Source: a virus (taxonomy: Duplodnaviria; Heunggongvirae; Uroviricota; Caudoviricetes). Taken from it: a stretch of DNA of 21,873 nucleotides. The stretch spans positions 1 through 21,873 of IMG/VR virus record IMGVR_UViG_2529293246_000003. One strand, written 5' to 3'. Made by a program: the position numbers and the translations under genes. Every line of letters begins with the position of its first letter. Within the stretch, counting starts at the first letter, position 1. Below the pieces are notes generated by a model, which made no database searches, was not told the DNA's origin, and was given only the letters and a program-made list of their open reading frames with translations. This document shows positions 6,260-12,957 of the stretch, piece after piece.

Positions 6260-6957
6260 AAAACATCGCCGCACAGATGGTTAACTTTGACCGTGAGCAG
6301 ATGTGCCGGATCGCCAATAACATGCCGGAACAGTACGACGAAAAGCCGCAGGTACAGCAGGTAGCGCAGATCATCAACGGTGTATTCAGCCAGTTGCTGG
6401 CAACTTTCCCTGCGAGCCTGGCTAACCGTGACCAGAACGAACTGAACGAAATTCGCCGCCAGTGGGTTCTGGCTTTCCGGGAAAACGGGATCACCACAAT
6501 GGAACAGGTTAACGCTGGAATGCGCGTAGCCCGTCGGCAGAATCGACCATTCCTGCCATCACCCGGGCAGTTTGTCGCCTGGTGCCGGGAAGAAGCATCC
6601 GTTACCGCCGGGCTGCCAAACGCCAGCGAGCTGGTTGATATGGTTTACGAGTATTGCCGGAAGCGCGGGCTGTATCCGGATGCAGAGTCTTATCCGTGGA
6701 AATCAAACGCGCACTACTGGCTGGTTACCAACCTGTATCAGAACATGCGGGCCAATGCGTTGACTGACTCGGAATTACGGCGCAAGGCTGCCGATGAACT
6801 TGCCCATATGACTGCGAGAATTAACCGTGGTGAGGCTATACCTGAACCAGTAAAACAACTTCCTGTCATGGGCGGTAGACCTCTAAATCGTGCACAGGCT
6901 CTGGCGAAGATTGCAGAAATCAAAGCTAAGTTCGGACTGAAAGGAGCCAGTGTATGA
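6256..6957 (+). CDS. P: replication protein P (DnaB helicase loader)
   Basis: 233-aa ORF, recognisably lambda P nearly residue for residue (MKNIAAQMVNFDREQM...); ATGA overlap with the O stop. Confidence 0.95.
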   Translation: MKNIAAQMVNFDREQMCRIANNMPEQYDEKPQVQQVAQIINGVFSQLLATFPASLANRDQNELNEIRRQWVLAFRENGITTMEQVNAGMRVARRQNRPFLPSPGQFVAWCREEASVTAGLPNASELVDMVYEYCRKRGLYPDAESYPWKSNAHYWLVTNLYQNMRANALTDSELRRKAADELAHMTARINRGEAIPEPVKQLPVMGGRPLNRAQALAKIAEIKAKFGLKGASV

Positions 6958-7247
6958 CGGGAAAAGAAGCAATTATTCATTACCTGGGGACGCATAAGAG
7001 CTTCTGTGCGCAGGACGTTGCTGCGGTAACAGGCGCAACAGTAACCAGCATAAATCAGGCTGCGGCTAAAATGGCGCGGACAGGAATCTTAGTTATTGAT
7101 GGTAAGGTCTGGCGAACGGTGTATTACCGGTTCGCTACCAGGGAAGAACGGGAAGGAAAGGTGAGCACGAATCTGATTTTCAAGGAGTGTCGCCAGAGTG
7201 CCGCGATGAAGCGGGTGTTGGCATTTTATCGCGGCAATTTTCAATAG
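6954..7247 (+). CDS. ren: Ren protein
   Basis: 97-aa ORF recognisably lambda Ren (MTGKEAIIHYLGTH...); overlaps the P stop. Confidence 0.9.
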   Translation: MTGKEAIIHYLGTHKSFCAQDVAAVTGATVTSINQAAAKMARTGILVIDGKVWRTVYYRFATREEREGKVSTNLIFKECRQSAAMKRVLAFYRGNFQ

Positions 7248-7284
7248 ACTATGTACATAAAAATATCATTTTTTTAATACATGT

Positions 7285-7491
7285 CTAATTATTGGACGAA
7301 ATTGGTTTTTGCTTTGGTTTAGTTAGCCTAGCAATCAAGCCAGAGGCAATAATGATGATCCAAGCAATTTGATGCAATGCTACTCCAATATAAGAACCTT
7401 TATAGATAATAAAGGCATAGATCGCTAGAAACGAAATAAATATCCATAACGAAAGTTGATAAATTTTGGCGCGCATATTTAATCCAATCAA
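7285..7491 (-). CDS. putative small membrane protein (two predicted TM helices)
   Basis: 68-aa ORF (TTG start at 7491, or ATG at 7476 giving 63 aa); very hydrophobic and AT-rich; no convincing Shine-Dalgarno, so it is uncertain. Confidence 0.3.
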   Translation of the reverse strand: MIGLNMRAKIYQLSLWIFISFLAIYAFIIYKGSYIGVALHQIAWIIIIASGLIARLTKPKQKPISSNN

Positions 7492-7732
7492 TCAGAAAGA
7501 CGAGTAATCATAGAGGTACTATCACCCGGGTAACTATTGCTATTATGAACGGATAGGATAGAGGCTTCAATAACATATGCATCAAGTATGATGGAATATG
7601 TAGGTGAAAATGACTTGTGTCAAATTTGTGGAAATGAGTACCATGTTTCTCTGAAATTGATGTCGTTAATGGCTAGTGATAGTGAACTTTTTTACTTTAT
7701 AATTCCTTTGGTTATAACAATAAGGTAAATTT

Positions 7733-8293
7733 ATGAAGAAGATAATATTATTAGCCATGATTATTGGTTCTTTAACAGGTTGCGCTAGTGTGCCACCATT
7801 GAATTTTTCAACACCTAACGTGGGAGTTAGCCAGAAAAAAATAGATGCTGAAATTAAGTCATTAACGGTATCACTTGCTCGTCCAGATGAGCAGAAAGGG
7901 GATATCACTGCTGGTATGGAGGCTATAACTCCAATTTGGCGTGAATCTTTGCAGGAAGCACTCGACCGAATGACTATTTTTCGTGATAGTTCACCAAATA
8001 CGGTTAGCTTAAATGTTAAAGTGTTGGCTCTTGACGTTCCTGCTTTTGGTGTTTCAATGACAACTAAAGCAATTGCAAGGTATGAAATAATCAACCGTGC
8101 GAATGGTGATATTATATATACGCAGGATATTGAGTCTACCGGTACTGTTCCAGCCAGTTACGCATTCTACGGTATTGTTCGAGCACGCGAATCTGTTAAT
8201 CGCGCGGTGCAAAACAACATAACGCAGTTCTTGCAAGCATTAGAAAGTGTTGATCTTTCTCGTCCAATGTTTCCTGTTAGGGTAGCTAAATGA
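7733..8293 (+). CDS. putative lipoprotein, unknown family
   Basis: 186-aa ORF with signal peptide and lipobox (MKKIILLAMIIGSLTG-C); AAGG Shine-Dalgarno; its stop overlaps the next gene's start; AT-rich. Confidence 0.75.
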   Translation: MKKIILLAMIIGSLTGCASVPPLNFSTPNVGVSQKKIDAEIKSLTVSLARPDEQKGDITAGMEAITPIWRESLQEALDRMTIFRDSSPNTVSLNVKVLALDVPAFGVSMTTKAIARYEIINRANGDIIYTQDIESTGTVPASYAFYGIVRARESVNRAVQNNITQFLQALESVDLSRPMFPVRVAK

Positions 8294-8742
8294 AGCGATT
8301 ATTCGTAATTGCTCCACTCTTAGTGTTGGTTGGATGCGCACAAAATATATCGCCAAATAGTTATTCTGTTGGCTCTGTGGGCATGGTTAATCGAACTATC
8401 GCTGGTACAGTTATTAGTGCTAGGGGGGTTGATATCAGTGGGACTTCCGCGTTAGGCGGGACTGCTGGGGCTGCCGTGGGGGCAACCGCTGGTTCTGCGC
8501 TTGGTGGGGGAGTTCGTTCTAATATCGTTGGTGCCGTTGGTGGTGCAGTCATTGGTGGTATTGCCGGGGCAGCAATCGAATCTTCAGCAACAAAACAAAC
8601 AGGCATGGAATATGTTGTCGAAACTGAGAATGGGAATTTAATGACCATTGTTCAAGGCAAAGATCCGTTATTTACTCAAGGAAGTAAGGTCCTTGTTTTA
8701 TACGGAAACCCTTCTCGCATAATAACAGACCCGCGTCACTAA
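8290..8742 (+). CDS. glycine-zipper outer-membrane lipoprotein (SlyB/Pcp-like)
   Basis: 150-aa ORF with lipobox (LVLVG-C) and a GxxxG-rich glycine-zipper segment (GTAGAAVGATAGSALGGGV...GAVGGAVIGGIAGAAIE), overall resembling the E. coli SlyB/Pcp architecture from memory. Confidence 0.8.
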   Translation: MKRLFVIAPLLVLVGCAQNISPNSYSVGSVGMVNRTIAGTVISARGVDISGTSALGGTAGAAVGATAGSALGGGVRSNIVGAVGGAVIGGIAGAAIESSATKQTGMEYVVETENGNLMTIVQGKDPLFTQGSKVLVLYGNPSRIITDPRH

Positions 8743-8788
8743 CATACCTTTTGATTTTGTAAAATCAATTCGTAATAATAAAGTCATC

Positions 8789-8903
8789 GGAGCTTGAACA
8801 ACTCCGGTGACTTCTGCGCTAAACGGGGACGTTTATGCGCACACACAATCCAAACTCTCATCTCCATTCACAGATGCAGAAATGCACCTACGATTTTTTA
8901 CAT
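8789..8903 (+). repeat. direct repeat copy 1 (~115 bp)
   Basis: GGAGCTTGAACAACTCCGGTGACTTCTGCGCTAAACGGGGACGTTTATGCGCACA...CGATTTTTT; near-identical to 10723-10837 with a handful of mismatches by eye. Confidence 0.85.
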
Positions 8904-9318
8904 TCGGTGTTTTACTTCGACAGCCAGAATTGGGAGTCTCTATTCGTCTGGCGGCTAAAGGTGATATGGAAATCGTTATGTTTTGGCCTGAGGTAGTTGT
9001 AACTGTTGTAGCAGCTATGGCTGTGATCATCATGGTGTCCATTTACTGGGGTTGACGACATGATTTATCCGGCGCTATATTCTGTGCGTTGCCGCAAAAT
9101 CGGCACACGGGATTGGCGTCCCGGGATACTACTCAACGCATACCGCGTTAAGCGGTTTTTTTGTGCGCTAAGCACGGCTATGCCCAAATTATGGTGGGCT
9201 GTGTGAGGGCTTCTTCGGAAGCGCCGGGTTTGAGTAGCCGGTTACGCCAACCTTACACAGTTCACCACCAGTCGATTGGCGTCGTTGGTGGTGATGGTTA
9301 ACCTGATGAGGTGATACT

Positions 9319-9927
9319 ATGACTACTCAATTAGCATTCCACAAAACGACGTTTACCCCGATTTGCCACAATAACAGAATTTGGCTTACTGCCACTGAAG
9401 TTGGTTTAGCACTGGAATATGCGGACGATAAAGCAGTTCAGCGCATTTACTCTCGGCACTCAGATGAATTCACAGATATGATGACAAGGGTGGTCAAAGT
9501 GACCACCCCTCGTGGAATGCAGGAGTCTCGAGTATTTAGCCTTCGCGGAGCCCATTTGATCGCCATGTTTGCTCGTACTCCTGTGGCCAAAGAATTCCGC
9601 CGCTGGGTTCTGGATATTCTCGATCGAGAAGTTCAACAATCCCCAATCACAAAACAATTCACTGATAACGAACTTTGCACACTCGCCTGGTTATGGCGAG
9701 CAAGTGATACGATGTTAACCGCCTGCCAGAACGTTACGCCCCTTCTTCAGGTCGCAGAGCATCGCGAAGCAGGTAGATTCACTTCAATCGAACAAGAATA
9801 TCCTCGGATACTCAACAGGGCGCGAGAAATCCTTGCCAGAGAAACGGCGCATGTAAAATTCCAACCGTGGCAGGATGATAAGTGGAGTCGTGTGTTACCA
9901 TATTTCCGTCAGAATCTGTTGCAATAA
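9319..9927 (+). CDS. Bro-N domain phage antirepressor-like protein
   Basis: 202-aa ORF with GAGGTGA Shine-Dalgarno; the N-terminal 100 aa fit the Bro-N/AntA pattern (TFTPICHNNRIWLTATEVGLALEY...SLRGAHLIAMFARTPVAKEFRRWVLDIL). Confidence 0.8.
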   Translation: MTTQLAFHKTTFTPICHNNRIWLTATEVGLALEYADDKAVQRIYSRHSDEFTDMMTRVVKVTTPRGMQESRVFSLRGAHLIAMFARTPVAKEFRRWVLDILDREVQQSPITKQFTDNELCTLAWLWRASDTMLTACQNVTPLLQVAEHREAGRFTSIEQEYPRILNRAREILARETAHVKFQPWQDDKWSRVLPYFRQNLLQ

Positions 9928-9946
9928 AGTCACTAGTTAGAAATAC

Positions 9947-9987
9947 TGCCAGCATTCTGCGATGACGGAAGTGCTGGCATTTTTTTT
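9947..9987 (+). terminator. rho-independent terminator after the antirepressor gene
   Basis: Stem TGCCAGCA(9947-9954)/TGCTGGCA(9972-9979) extended by TTC/GAA, followed by a run of 8 T (9980-9987). Confidence 0.65.
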
Positions 9988-10162
9988 GGTAATGTGCGAG
10001 TCCATTTCATAAAATACGGGTACTGGAACTGGACGATATAATCTAAAAGATACCATTATCAGTAGCATTAAAATCGCTATGTGCCGATACGGATATAAAT
10101 TATATTGATTGTTCACATACCTTATTGGATATTACTGAGGGGTGTTTATATAAGGTGTAACG

Positions 10163-10672
10163 ATGATGTGGAACTTTGACAGTGCCGACTTAAGTGCAAT
10201 AGCAGCAGGCATTTCTGCGTTTGGCACATTAGCCGCAGCGGGGTCGGCGCTTGCAAGTTGGTACACGTCAAAAAAAGCGCTGCAGCTACAAAATAGAGTT
10301 TACCTTTATGAGTCTTTAAAGGCTTGCGCTGAGAGAGCCAATTCATCAGCTAAAGATAAGCGCGGATCTGAATGGAGCGTTAATGATGCAGCGGATATCA
10401 TCAGGTGCCTAGTACGGGCGATGGAGATCATCAAGCAGGATAGCCAGCAGAAAGAAGGTAATCAGGCATTAATGTTGAAACAGTACTTTGTTAATCTGCT
10501 AATAATGGAACTGTACGAGGAAGTTCATAACGGTGATGCGGCTGATTCTGTTTTTAAAAGTACGGAACCTACACAAGTACTTGATAACTTATGGAGCAAA
10601 TGGCAGGAGGCTATAGCTTTTTTTGATATTTGGAATTACCCAGTTGCGACTGAGGAAGACTTGGCAGACTAA
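10163..10672 (+). CDS. hypothetical membrane-anchored protein (single N-terminal TM helix, acidic soluble C-terminal domain)
   Basis: 169-aa ORF; AAGGTG Shine-Dalgarno; preceded by the terminator and an AT-rich promoter-like stretch (TTGATT at 10106-10111); TM segment LSAIAAGISAFGTLAAAGSALASWY; no family recognised. Confidence 0.7.
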   Translation: MMWNFDSADLSAIAAGISAFGTLAAAGSALASWYTSKKALQLQNRVYLYESLKACAERANSSAKDKRGSEWSVNDAADIIRCLVRAMEIIKQDSQQKEGNQALMLKQYFVNLLIMELYEEVHNGDAADSVFKSTEPTQVLDNLWSKWQEAIAFFDIWNYPVATEEDLAD

Positions 10673-10722
10673 TTTTCAGCACATTTGATTTCCAATAATC
10701 AACCAGCCATAATCATGCCATT

Positions 10723-10837
10723 GGAGCTTGAACAACTCCGGTGACTTCTGCGCTAAACGGGGACGTTTATGCGCACATACAATCCAAACTCTCTTCTCCC
10801 TTCACAGATGCAGAAATGCACCTGCGATTTTTTGCAT
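10723..10837 (+). repeat. direct repeat copy 2 (~115 bp)
   Basis: Partner of 8789-8903; this copy sits immediately upstream of the ybcN-like gene. Confidence 0.85.
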
Positions 10838-10870
10838 CCAGCGTCTGACCTCTGCGGAGGTGAAGCGTGA
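10769..10870 (+). CDS. 33-codon small ORF inside repeat copy 2 (YlcH-like position)
   Basis: ATG 10769, [33 protein letters not shown]; its stop TGA (10868-10870) overlaps the GTG start of the next gene (GTGA). DLP12 carries a ~33-aa ylcH immediately upstream of ybcN as I recall; copy 1 has a diverged version starting at 8835. Confidence 0.35.
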
Positions 10871-11322
10871 ACCTACCACAAGATGGCATCAAACTGCATC
10901 GCGGTAACTTCACCGCTATCGGCCAGCAGATCCAGCCTTATCTGGAGGACGGAAAATGCTTTCGCATGGTGCTTAAACCGTGGCGTGAGAAACGCAGTCT
11001 TTCCCAGAATGCACTCAGCCACATGTGGTACAGCGAAATCAGTGAATACCTCATCAGCAGGGGGAAATCGTTCGCTACCGCAGCATGGGTAAAAGATGCT
11101 CTCAAACACACATACCTCGGTTATGAAACCAAGGACCTGGTTGATGTCGTAACCGGCGAAATCACTACTATCCAGTCGTTACGCCATACTTCCGATCTTG
11201 ATACCGGAGAGATGTATGTCTTCCTGTGTAAGGTTGAAGCCTGGGCGATGAATATTGGCTGCCACCTGACTATTCCGCAGAGCTGCGAGTTCCAGCTGCT
11301 GCGCGACAAGCAGGAGGCGTAA
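10867..11322 (+). CDS. ybcN: NinB/Orf-family recombination mediator (DLP12 YbcN-like)
   Basis: 151-aa ORF with GTG start and GGAGG at 10856-10860; the [15 protein letters not shown] segment matches the NinB-family motif; followed by ninE as in lambdoid nin regions. Confidence 0.75.
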
Positions 11323-11492
11323 TGGCTACACCGCTTATTCGTGTCATGAACGGACACATCTACAGAGTACCAAATCGTCGTAAGCGTAAGCCTGAGCTGA
11401 AGCCATCCGAAATACCAACACTGCTCGGATATACCGCTAGCTTGTTTGATAAAAAATGGTTGCGACTGGCAGCAAGGAGGAGTCATGGCTGA
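11322..11492 (+). CDS. ninE: NinE-family small protein
   Basis: 56-aa ORF below the track's size cut-off, translated by hand ([56 protein letters not shown]); TAATG overlap with the ybcN-like stop; basic C-terminus like lambda NinE. Confidence 0.7.
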   Translation: MATPLIRVMNGHIYRVPNRRKRKPELKPSEIPTLLGYTASLFDKKWLRLAARRSHG

Positions 11493-12134: not shown

Positions 12135-12271
12135 TGTTTGAGTTTTATATGGCAGAACTTCTTCGCAACCGCTGGATGCGCCTGCGCTTATATCGTTTTC
12201 CTGGTTCTGTTTTGACCGATTACCGGATACTGAAGAATTACGCCAAAACACTGAAAGGAGCTGCCGCATGA
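12131..12271 (+). CDS. small protein, YlcG-like position
   Basis: 46-codon ORF translated by hand ([46 protein letters not shown]); overlaps the rusA stop at its start and the Q start at its stop, suggesting translational coupling. Confidence 0.5.
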
Positions 12272-12957
12272 ATACCCAATATTTACAGTATGTCCGCGAG
12301 CAACTCATTGTGGCTACCGCTGATTTGAGCGGAGCAACGAAAGGACAGCTTGAAGCCTGGCTGGAGCATGCACAATTTGATACAGGTACATACAAACGAA
12401 AGAAGCCGCGCATTCTGGATGAGGTAACTGGCAGGATGATTACGCTGGATAATCCGCCGATTTCCGGTAAGCAGTCGTACGCAAAAGGTTCATCCATTGC
12501 ACTGGTCAGCCAGGTTGAGTTCTCAACCTCATCATGGCGCCGCGCGGTTCTGTCTCTCGAAGAACATCAGAAAGCGTGGTTGCTGTGGAGTTACAGCGAA
12601 AGTGTTCGCTGGGAACATCAGGTCACCATAACGCAGTGGGCATGGAGCGAGTTTAAGACTCTGTTGGGTACCAGGAAAATTGCAGGTAAGACACTGGAAC
12701 GTTTGAAGAAGTTGATCTGGCTGGCGGCACAGGATGTGAAGAACGAGCTGGCAGGGCGTAAGACCTATGAATACCAGGAGCTGGCATCACTGGTGGGAGT
12801 GACATCAAAAAACTGGTCTGAGACATTTACTGAACGCTGGGTTGCAATGAAGCACATTTTTCTACAGCTTGATAGCGAAGCTTTATTGCTTGTAACGAGA
12901 ACACGTTCAAAACAAAAGACGACATTTTCACAGCAAAGTATTGCAAAACTGGATTAA
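12268..12957 (+). CDS. putative late-gene antiterminator Q (positional call)
   Basis: 229-aa ORF, AAAGGAG Shine-Dalgarno; last gene before the late leader and terminator and the lysis cassette; the sequence is not lambda-Q-like, so the family is unconfirmed. Confidence 0.6.
   Translation: MNTQYLQYVREQLIVATADLSGATKGQLEAWLEHAQFDTGTYKRKKPRILDEVTGRMITLDNPPISGKQSYAKGSSIALVSQVEFSTSSWRRAVLSLEEHQKAWLLWSYSESVRWEHQVTITQWAWSEFKTLLGTRKIAGKTLERLKKLIWLAAQDVKNELAGRKTYEYQELASLVGVTSKNWSETFTERWVAMKHIFLQLDSEALLLVTRTRSKQKTTFSQQSIAKLD

Follow-up and report, generated by a model that had tools for sequence, protein, structure and literature searches.

Organization of the locus

The studied window, meaning the whole stretch of 21,873 nucleotides (nt) analyzed here (IMG/VR record IMGVR_UViG_2529293246_000003, positions 1 to 21,873), is a segment of a lambdoid prophage with the order O, P, ren, two lipoprotein genes, leader copy 1, an accessory cassette, leader copy 2, ybcN/NinB, ninE, YbcO, RusA, and Q. 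We describe the two leaders, which form a direct repeat, and the cassette between them, which includes an antirepressor gene and a cargo gene for a membrane-anchored protein. Sequence comparison makes it highly probable that a cassette of approximately 1.9-2.0 kb, similar to that of phage PhiR26_1, was recombined into a PhiR30_1-like backbone through both leaders. All genes, open reading frames (ORFs), and RNA features described below from leader copy 1 to ybcN are on the plus strand.

A repeat search of the window revealed a single long direct-repeat family, whose members are at 8750-8918 and 10684-10852 (169 nt, 86% identity), with a spacing of 1934 nt. It is far beyond chance, since the sole other family is a 27-nt pair with 81% identity. 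The pairwise alignment contains a core, 8789-8903 and 10723-10837, with 5 mismatches in 115 nt (at 8844, 8860, 8866, 8890, and 8900) and a perfect run of 55 nt (8789-8843), and weaker similarity continues approximately 40 nt further left, across a promoter-like TTGATT-N17-(A/C)ATAAT.

Copy 2 (10684..10852; covariance model, 144.3 bits) is composed of a promoter-like TTGATT-N17-CATAAT (10685-10713), hairpin 1 (10719-10743), hairpin 2 (10749-10775), a conserved 23-mer box (10803-10825), and a ylcH-like upstream ORF of 33 codons (10769..10870), whose TGA stop overlaps the GTG start of the next gene as GTGA. The latter gene (10867..11322), which heads the nin operon, encodes a protein of the ybcN / NinB-Orf family with a length of 151 amino acids (aa). 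Over 187 nt, copy 2 shares 91% identity with the phage 82 sequence in GenBank X92588, where putative -35 and -10 sites, orf33 (= ylcH), orf151 (= ybcN), and an inverted repeat marked as a 'possible regulator-binding site' are annotated; the promoter sites, the inverted repeat, and the overlap of orf33 with orf151 are all found in copy 2. Homology, the GTGA overlap, and the location before a NinB-family gene together identify the repeat, at the level of sequence, as the leader preceding ylcH-ybcN (ninB) in nin regions of the phage-82/DLP12 type. Unlike the DLP12/phage 82 leader, the window adds a paralogous copy upstream of a different module. Homology is the single one of these marks found in that copy, and its ORF enters a different gene.

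Copy 1 (8750..8918; model R1, 139.7 bits, and alignment) contains a promoter-like site formed by TTGATT (8751-8756), a 17-nt spacer, and AATAAT (8774-8779). It continues with hairpin 1 (8781-8813, loop CUUGAACAA) and hairpin 2 (8815-8841), which has a GGGA loop and holds the AUG of the upstream ORF (8835) in its 3' arm. Hairpin 2 is followed by a C-rich, G-poor tract, the conserved box from 8869, and a U-run (8894-8899). The upstream ORF, whose start is shared with ylcH, has 53 codons (8835..8996), and its stop falls 31 nt past the start of a 29-aa ORF.

Between the copies lie the antirepressor gene (9319..9927), encoding a protein with Bro-N and P22_AR_C domains, and the intrinsic terminator of its operon, a strong hairpin with U8 (9947..9986). 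The cargo gene (10163..10672) follows a weak promoter-like match (9986-10015) and encodes a 169-aa all-helical protein with a hydrophobic N-terminal membrane helix, assigned to phrog_1779 (unknown function). The sequence-only reading of this locus had described the two near-identical copies of approximately 115 bp at their spacing of 1934 bp, the short ORF in each, the GTGA overlap of copy 2, the antirepressor gene with its own terminator, and the promoter-driven membrane-anchored ORF, and all of these observations were reproduced, the promoter as a weak promoter-like match. The 29-aa membrane ORF, the small RNA (sRNA) IsrK, and the C4 antisense RNA were absent from it.

Parental sequences and probable direction of the exchange

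Base-by-base comparison demonstrates that the window changes its closest relative twice. On the left, it differs from PhiR30_1 by 1 mismatch in 6900-8843 (1.9 kb), after which the five copy-1 markers follow; on the right, mismatches with PhiR30_1 are confined to 10692-10722, with 0 in 10723-11400 (678 nt). The interior follows PhiR26_1, from which it differs by 2 mismatches in 8815-10814 (10263 and 10427); outside the insert, divergence from PhiR26_1 is strong leftward of 8815, and 16 mismatches fall in 10815-11085. The left recombination joint (8815..8843) is therefore a 29-nt segment identical to both parents, with PhiR30_1 leftward and PhiR26_1 rightward, and the right joint (10723..10814) is a 92-nt segment with the reverse arrangement. 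Both are switches within identity to both parents, with near-identity on either side, as expected for mosaic joints. The left joint falls in hairpin 2 of copy 1. Because both joints are inside the repeated core, both copies in the window are chimeric, and for this reason they are more alike here than in the donor. In PhiR26_1 itself, hairpin 1 of copy 1 is quite unlike the nin version, and its RNA is still paired via three G-U pairs.

Lambdoid mosaics are known to form by homologous recombination over short diverged homology (De Paepe et al., 2014, PMC3945230; Martinsohn et al., 2008, PMC2327257). The window resembles the module exchange described in these studies in having a conserved module-border sequence shared by diverged phages, joints (29 and 92 nt) inside this border sequence, and a donor segment more than 99.9% identical to its source. 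It differs from them in that the border sequence is present twice per genome, bracketing the cassette and allowing its deletion, and in that the border, rather than being neutral homology, is a structured RNA leader under selection.

The empty site, with the same lipoprotein genes, one leader, and ybcN, was found in PhiR30_1 and in 276/5,426 complete E. coli genomes. The sequence-only reading had proposed insertion or excision by homologous recombination across a ylcH-like leader and had called for single-copy relatives lacking the cassette. Such relatives exist, the joints lie within the core, and the relatives display a clear presence/absence polymorphism rather than two copies throughout; the comparison thus supports insertion by this route. 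The window's left junction was found in 0/5,426 complete E. coli genomes (at best, 62% of 8300-9300 was covered, with none at 80% or more), and no record covered more than 93% of 8600-11000.

Two-copy loci were found in PhiR26_1, E. coli PEC240, phage IdasGreatGrand, and two viral contigs (L004, L006, L011, L041, and L042). They have the left part in common (copy 1, the membrane ORF, isrK, C4, and ant), and the cargo before copy 2 and nin differs from locus to locus. Since the upstream copy is present in every two-copy locus, these sequences indicate that it is not an insertion by-product and is the cassette's own paralogous leader. About 308 genomes have copy 1 joined to the membrane ORF and the isrK promoter.

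The proposed mechanism starts from an accessory module that sits directly upstream of the nin leader and is headed by its own leader copy. The near-identical core of the leader pair would then serve as portable homology arms, and the cassette would enter by two crossovers, one per leader copy, at 8815-8843 and 10723-10814; the recombinase would be Red or RecA. The reverse route is a deletion via the 55-nt perfect run, which would restore exactly the single leader of PhiR30_1. Judged from frequencies, gain of the cassette is more likely than loss, because the empty site is frequent and the arrangement with the cassette is unique to the window, and also because the junction of the lipoprotein genes with the nin leader must predate the nin-type left half of copy 1. 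Several points weigh against gain. PhiR30_1 is also the exact product of a deletion in a window-like ancestor, and gain requires two crossovers or two successive events. Loss is mechanistically open, as the 55-nt run exceeds the approximately 30 bp quoted as the minimum homology for Red-beta (PMC3945230). Finally, the genome counts come from complete E. coli genomes only (n = 5,426).

The leader as an RNA element and alternative accounts of the repeat

Many lambdoid phages of enterobacteria carry this leader, of approximately 150-170 nt, at the head of the nin operon. The leader together with ybcN is present in 3,019/5,426 complete E. coli genomes. It also precedes NinB-type genes in phi80, HK225, HK639, Enterobacter phage CobraSix, and phage 82, and in phi80 one of its hairpins is annotated as IR4. 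The 23-mer box CACAGATGCAGAAATGCACCTGC (8869-8891 and 10803-10825) occurs exactly in viral contigs and in representative genomes of several enterobacterial genera (Enterobacter, Citrobacter, Escherichia, Trabulsiella, Lelliottia, Scandinavium, and others). Matches on tiny contigs labeled Kocuria and Oxalobacter are apparent contamination. The leader set was gathered by the exact 23-mer, so that the box is invariant in that set by construction; it is also invariant in 12 sequences obtained from BLAST or from the window itself.

The 96 unique leaders have a constant layout: a palindrome over a -35-like hexamer, the -10-like CATAAT, hairpins 1 and 2, the C-rich tract, the box, and a GGAGG Shine-Dalgarno sequence followed by an ATGA or GTGA overlap with ninB. 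The loops are CYUGAACAM in hairpin 1 and GGGA in hairpin 2, which carries the start codon of the upstream ORF in its 3' arm; the C-rich tract contains 38% C and 8.7% G. The upstream ORF is open in 96/96 leaders, has 31-33 codons, and ends with a stop codon that overlaps the start of ninB. The N-terminal half of the ORF varies freely, which suggests that the act of translation itself matters rather than the peptide. An exact box within an ORF whose N-terminal half varies implies, at the sequence level, a constraint on nucleotides.

The palindrome TTGAT-N8-ATCAA (8751-8768 and 10685-10702) overlaps the -35-like hexamer and is kept in most variants; in phi80 and HK225 it has the form TTGATA..TATCAA. 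It may be a protein-binding site on DNA, separate from the RNA hairpins. The palindrome resembles half-sites of FNR, which are spaced by N4; with N8 here, the spacing is wrong.

Individual folds succeeded for 54/54 distinct versions of hairpin 1 and 17/17 of hairpin 2, where the stems UAAACG/CGUUUA, AUUUAAG/CUUAAAU, UUUGAG/CUCAAA, and others all fold with the GGGA loop. A covariance model recovered 106 leader instances. In the resulting alignment, which is fitted to the model and has hairpin 2 out of register for one sequence group, helix 1 demonstrates changes on both sides in 8/9 pairs and pairing in 94% of its cells; over all cells, 91% are paired, vs 28-39% with the partners slid; none of the 500 shuffled controls reached the observed pairing values. 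Compensatory changes across diverged homologues, the mark of a structured cis-regulatory RNA, are therefore present in the leader. RNAalifold on a plain MAFFT alignment missed the hairpins, as indels shift groups of sequences, and was replaced by the per-sequence folds and the covariance model. The many G-U pairs point to an RNA structure on the sense strand, not a DNA operator, also for the inverted repeat annotated in X92588. The sequence-only reading had allowed for a known RNA or promoter element in the repeat; the leader matched no Rfam family at the gathering threshold, nor at E<=5, and full-text literature searches for ylcH, alone or with ybcN, returned nothing relevant. The leader thus appears to be a previously undescribed structured RNA element.

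Our best guess for its function is a translational gate, in which hairpin 2 would hide the AUG of the upstream ORF and translation of this ORF would be coupled to that of the first gene of the downstream module. In copy 1, too, the upstream ORF stops past the start of the membrane ORF, by 13-31 nt. When untranslated, the C-rich tract may expose transcripts to Rho, resulting in Rho-dependent polarity. In the records inspected, 8-44 nt separate the ends of the upstream accessory genes from the leader, and no terminator is annotated in this gap, which fits a possible role of the leader as an insulator ahead of the antirepressor and nin-Q. The case for a structured gate is weakened by three considerations. 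The gate is deduced from sequence features alone; the count for helix 2 understates its pairing, so that hairpin 2 leans on the per-sequence folds; and the conserved -35/-10-like motif with the TTGAT-N8-ATCAA palindrome may reflect control at the DNA level as well.

The likeness of the two copies could also be explained without recombination, as that of ancient paralogues of one regulatory element kept alike by purifying selection. Selection clearly acts on the hairpins and the upstream ORF, and copy-1-type leaders are old, given that cassettes diverged to 78% identity keep a 92%-identical core. Selection alone, however, does not produce the sharp parentage switches found in the core of both copies, with flanks 99.9-100% identical to PhiR30_1 and an interior 99.9% identical to PhiR26_1, and we consider this account very unlikely. 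It is less probable still, to the point of being nearly negligible, that the direct repeats flanking the insert arose as target-site duplications, or serve as the recombination sites, of a mobile element, the cassette having been inserted by a transposase or a site-specific recombinase. A candidate for the latter is ybcK, which in other genomes immediately precedes truncated copies of this antirepressor gene; these ybcK-linked loci, however, have another breakpoint (9616/9617) and are devoid of copy 1. According to the ORF list and Pfam, no recombinase or transposase gene is located in the cassette or next to it, and the transposase or integrase with short duplications or attC-type sites that define transposon- or integron-type cassettes were not found. 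The repeat (115-169 nt) is unlike a 2-14-bp target duplication, and the full leader is already present in empty sites. The joints, at differing places in long shared identity, point to homologous and not site-specific exchange.

Another account takes the core as a gene for an sRNA of approximately 115 nt, running from promoter to U-run terminator and present in two copies, rather than as an mRNA leader. High identity indeed begins right after the -10-like hexamer and stops at the U-run (8789-8903), a terminator-like hairpin with U6 was flagged in copy 2, and this architecture resembles the short and long IsrK isoforms (PMC4825925). We nevertheless regard an sRNA gene as unlikely. The U-run is broken in many variants, including K-12 DLP12 (CAATTCTTTG) and others (GATGTCTTG); the terminator-like hairpin (hairpin 3) is weak, with -4.4 kcal/mol in copy 1; and the ORF that traverses the core, open in all 96 variants and ending exactly at the ninB start, fits a leader. 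Moreover, the window contains no sequence complementary to the leader loops or the box above chance (best match 13/14 nt, E 2.9), and hence no such antisense target.

Cassette regulation, cargo slot, and relation to known phage modules

The first gene of the cassette is the 29-aa hydrophobic ORF (8966..9055; MEIVMFWPEVVVTVVAAMAVIIMVSIYWG), preceded by the Shine-Dalgarno sequence AAGGTGAT and matching the C-terminal half of phrog_4612. A longer ORF of 57 codons (8882-9055) starts at an ATG in the copy 1 box, in a frame other than that of ylcH, and ends as the 29-aa peptide; its length is that of the entire phrog_4612 profile (57 positions). These frames suggest that long and short forms of the membrane protein may be made. 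In PEC240 (L006), the short membrane ORF is cut to 6 codons.

This ORF is followed by a promoter-like TTGACG-N18-TATATT (9052..9081; 10/12 matches) and the IsrK sRNA (9090..9162; Rfam RF01394, 58.7 bits against a gathering score of 50, model positions 1-77), with a terminator-like hairpin and U-run (U7) at 9142-9156. A C4-type antisense RNA (9187..9272; RF01695, 74.8 bits, gathering score 45) carries the recognition elements a' (UUGAGUAG at 9230) and b' (ACGCCAA at 9244). Two target pairs face them: b1 (GAUUGGCGUC at 9111) and a1 (ACUACUCAA at 9128) inside IsrK, where the match to RF03163 (c4-a1b1) is below threshold, and b2 (9274-9283), upstream of the antirepressor AUG (9319), with a2 (9322-9330) just after it. 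CTACTCAA has no other occurrence in the window, and the a/b complementarity is unique there. A small orf45-like ORF of 36-46 codons (9161/9191-9301) overlaps C4. The antirepressor domains are assigned with 40.5 bits for PF02498 (cut-off 25.6) and 63.7 bits for PF10548 (cut-off 22.4).

Two elements against two target pairs are the arrangement of P1 immI-type C4 systems, and the sequence of the locus indicates that antirepressor control here is the P1 immI logic joined to a Gifsy-1-like IsrK locus, in which IsrK would titrate C4 off the antirepressor start site. As in P1/P7 immI, C4 elements are directed at two target sets, here inside IsrK and at the start of antirepressor translation. Unlike immI, the window ORF list contains no icd gene coupled to ant, just the 36-46-codon ORF ahead of it, and a2 lies in codons 2-4 of the Bro-N/P22_AR_C antirepressor gene itself. 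In the Gifsy-1 isrK-orf45-anrP-isrJ region, the IsrK terminator is leaky, and the short form of IsrK switches on AnrP, the antirepressor, by promoting its translation from the read-through mRNA (Hershko-Shalev et al., 2016, PMC4825925). The window shares with this region IsrK, here with a promoter-like and a terminator-like site, a small ORF over the processed RNA, and an antirepressor. Three differences distinguish it: no match to isrJ was found in 8650-11000, even at E<=5; the module is located between ren and ninB, after a nin-type leader and the 29-aa membrane ORF; and antiterminator Q is downstream, whereas it is upstream in Gifsy-1.

At the same genomic position in E. coli ij001 (L008 1633-2888), a related antirepressor is found under an Arc-family repressor gene pair, not IsrK and C4. 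Control by an Arc-family pair is the P22 immI style. Given this replacement, the regulatory front end of the antirepressor would itself be modular. In many E. coli genomes and 4C10-like phages, the antirepressor gene is truncated identically at window position 9616/9617 (e.g., L003 2501, L005 3001, L009 2501, and L010 2501), directly downstream of ybcK (serine-recombinase family) or a zinc-ribbon pseudogene, and copy 1, isrK, and C4 are lost from these loci. The identical breakpoint points to one deletion or insertion that took place long ago and is now widespread.

Gene content differs by lineage in the hypervariable slot that extends from the antirepressor terminator to the nin leader. The compared positions are 9960-10683 in the window, 2996-3940 in L009, 4443-5239 in L006, 3723-4519 in L041, 2839-3687 in L042 (reverse complement), 3273-3629 in L010, 3051-3856 in L008, and 2727-3770 in L003. 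In relatives, this slot holds BstA (PADLOC, E 3.8e-121), HEPN with a 133-aa partner, an alpha/beta hydrolase, and several unknown proteins, and from its contents it looks like a hotspot of accessory or defence genes. Like the morons and defence hotspots described for bstA, it contains a self-contained gene that differs by lineage, a BstA homologue included; unlike the described BstA site downstream of cI (cI-N), it follows the antirepressor terminator and precedes the nin leader (Owen et al., 2021, PMC8585504).

In the window, the slot carries the cargo gene. Its protein matched nothing in Pfam and PADLOC, nor any of the known defence families, and searches with its AlphaFold model (predicted local distance difference test score, pLDDT, 71) against the Foldseek PDB and viral sets gave nothing at E<=0.001. 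Weak matches to HEPN toxins were of low probability (0.2-0.3) and were dismissed; the sequence has no R-x4-6-H motif. By position alone, the 169-aa protein is a candidate exclusion or defence gene product. In PhiR26_1 (L004 2190-3692), the gene just upstream of copy 1, on the opposite strand, is annotated as PD-lambda-1. PD-lambda-1 is a known defence system, and its presence here would again mark the ren-ninB interval as a location of defence genes.

To the left of copy 1, a moron of two adjacent lipoprotein genes (7733-8742; phrog_12521 and phrog_13877) is located between ren and the leader. The second of these genes encodes a glycine-zipper domain, and the lipoprotein gene stop codon is 8 nt from the leader start. 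To the right, from approximately 12.28 kb (~12284), the window loses all similarity to PhiR30_1 and to PhiR26_1; positions 12268-12957 encode a 229-aa PF06323 Q antiterminator, while the relatives have a 127-aa QuuD-type protein. As judged from this divergence, the position just after rusA/ylcG is another mosaic boundary.

A broader proposal, which we regard as possible but doubtful, unites these observations. The leader would be a shared post-transcriptional gate or insulator placed before modules dangerous to the lysogen (the antirepressor and nin-Q), perhaps responding to a common trans factor; it would at the same time be a portable recombination site that makes the ren-ninB interval a hotspot of defence cassettes, and the 169-aa protein would be a new exclusion or defence protein.

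The locus as such is a very clean yet ordinary instance of phage module swapping, an unusually well-resolved case of a known process, and neither the leader nor the slot overturns current understanding. The variable slot after the antirepressor is worth attention, holding BstA and HEPN in relatives and an uncharacterized membrane protein here. The leader is an unannotated structured element, carried ahead of ybcN/rusA/Q by over half of the complete E. coli genomes, including K-12 with its DLP12 prophage. The window offers a natural example, resolved to the base pair, of the gain or loss of an accessory cassette via short conserved sequences, and since a sequenced plaque-forming phage exists for each parental type (PhiR30_1 and PhiR26_1), the event could be recreated experimentally.

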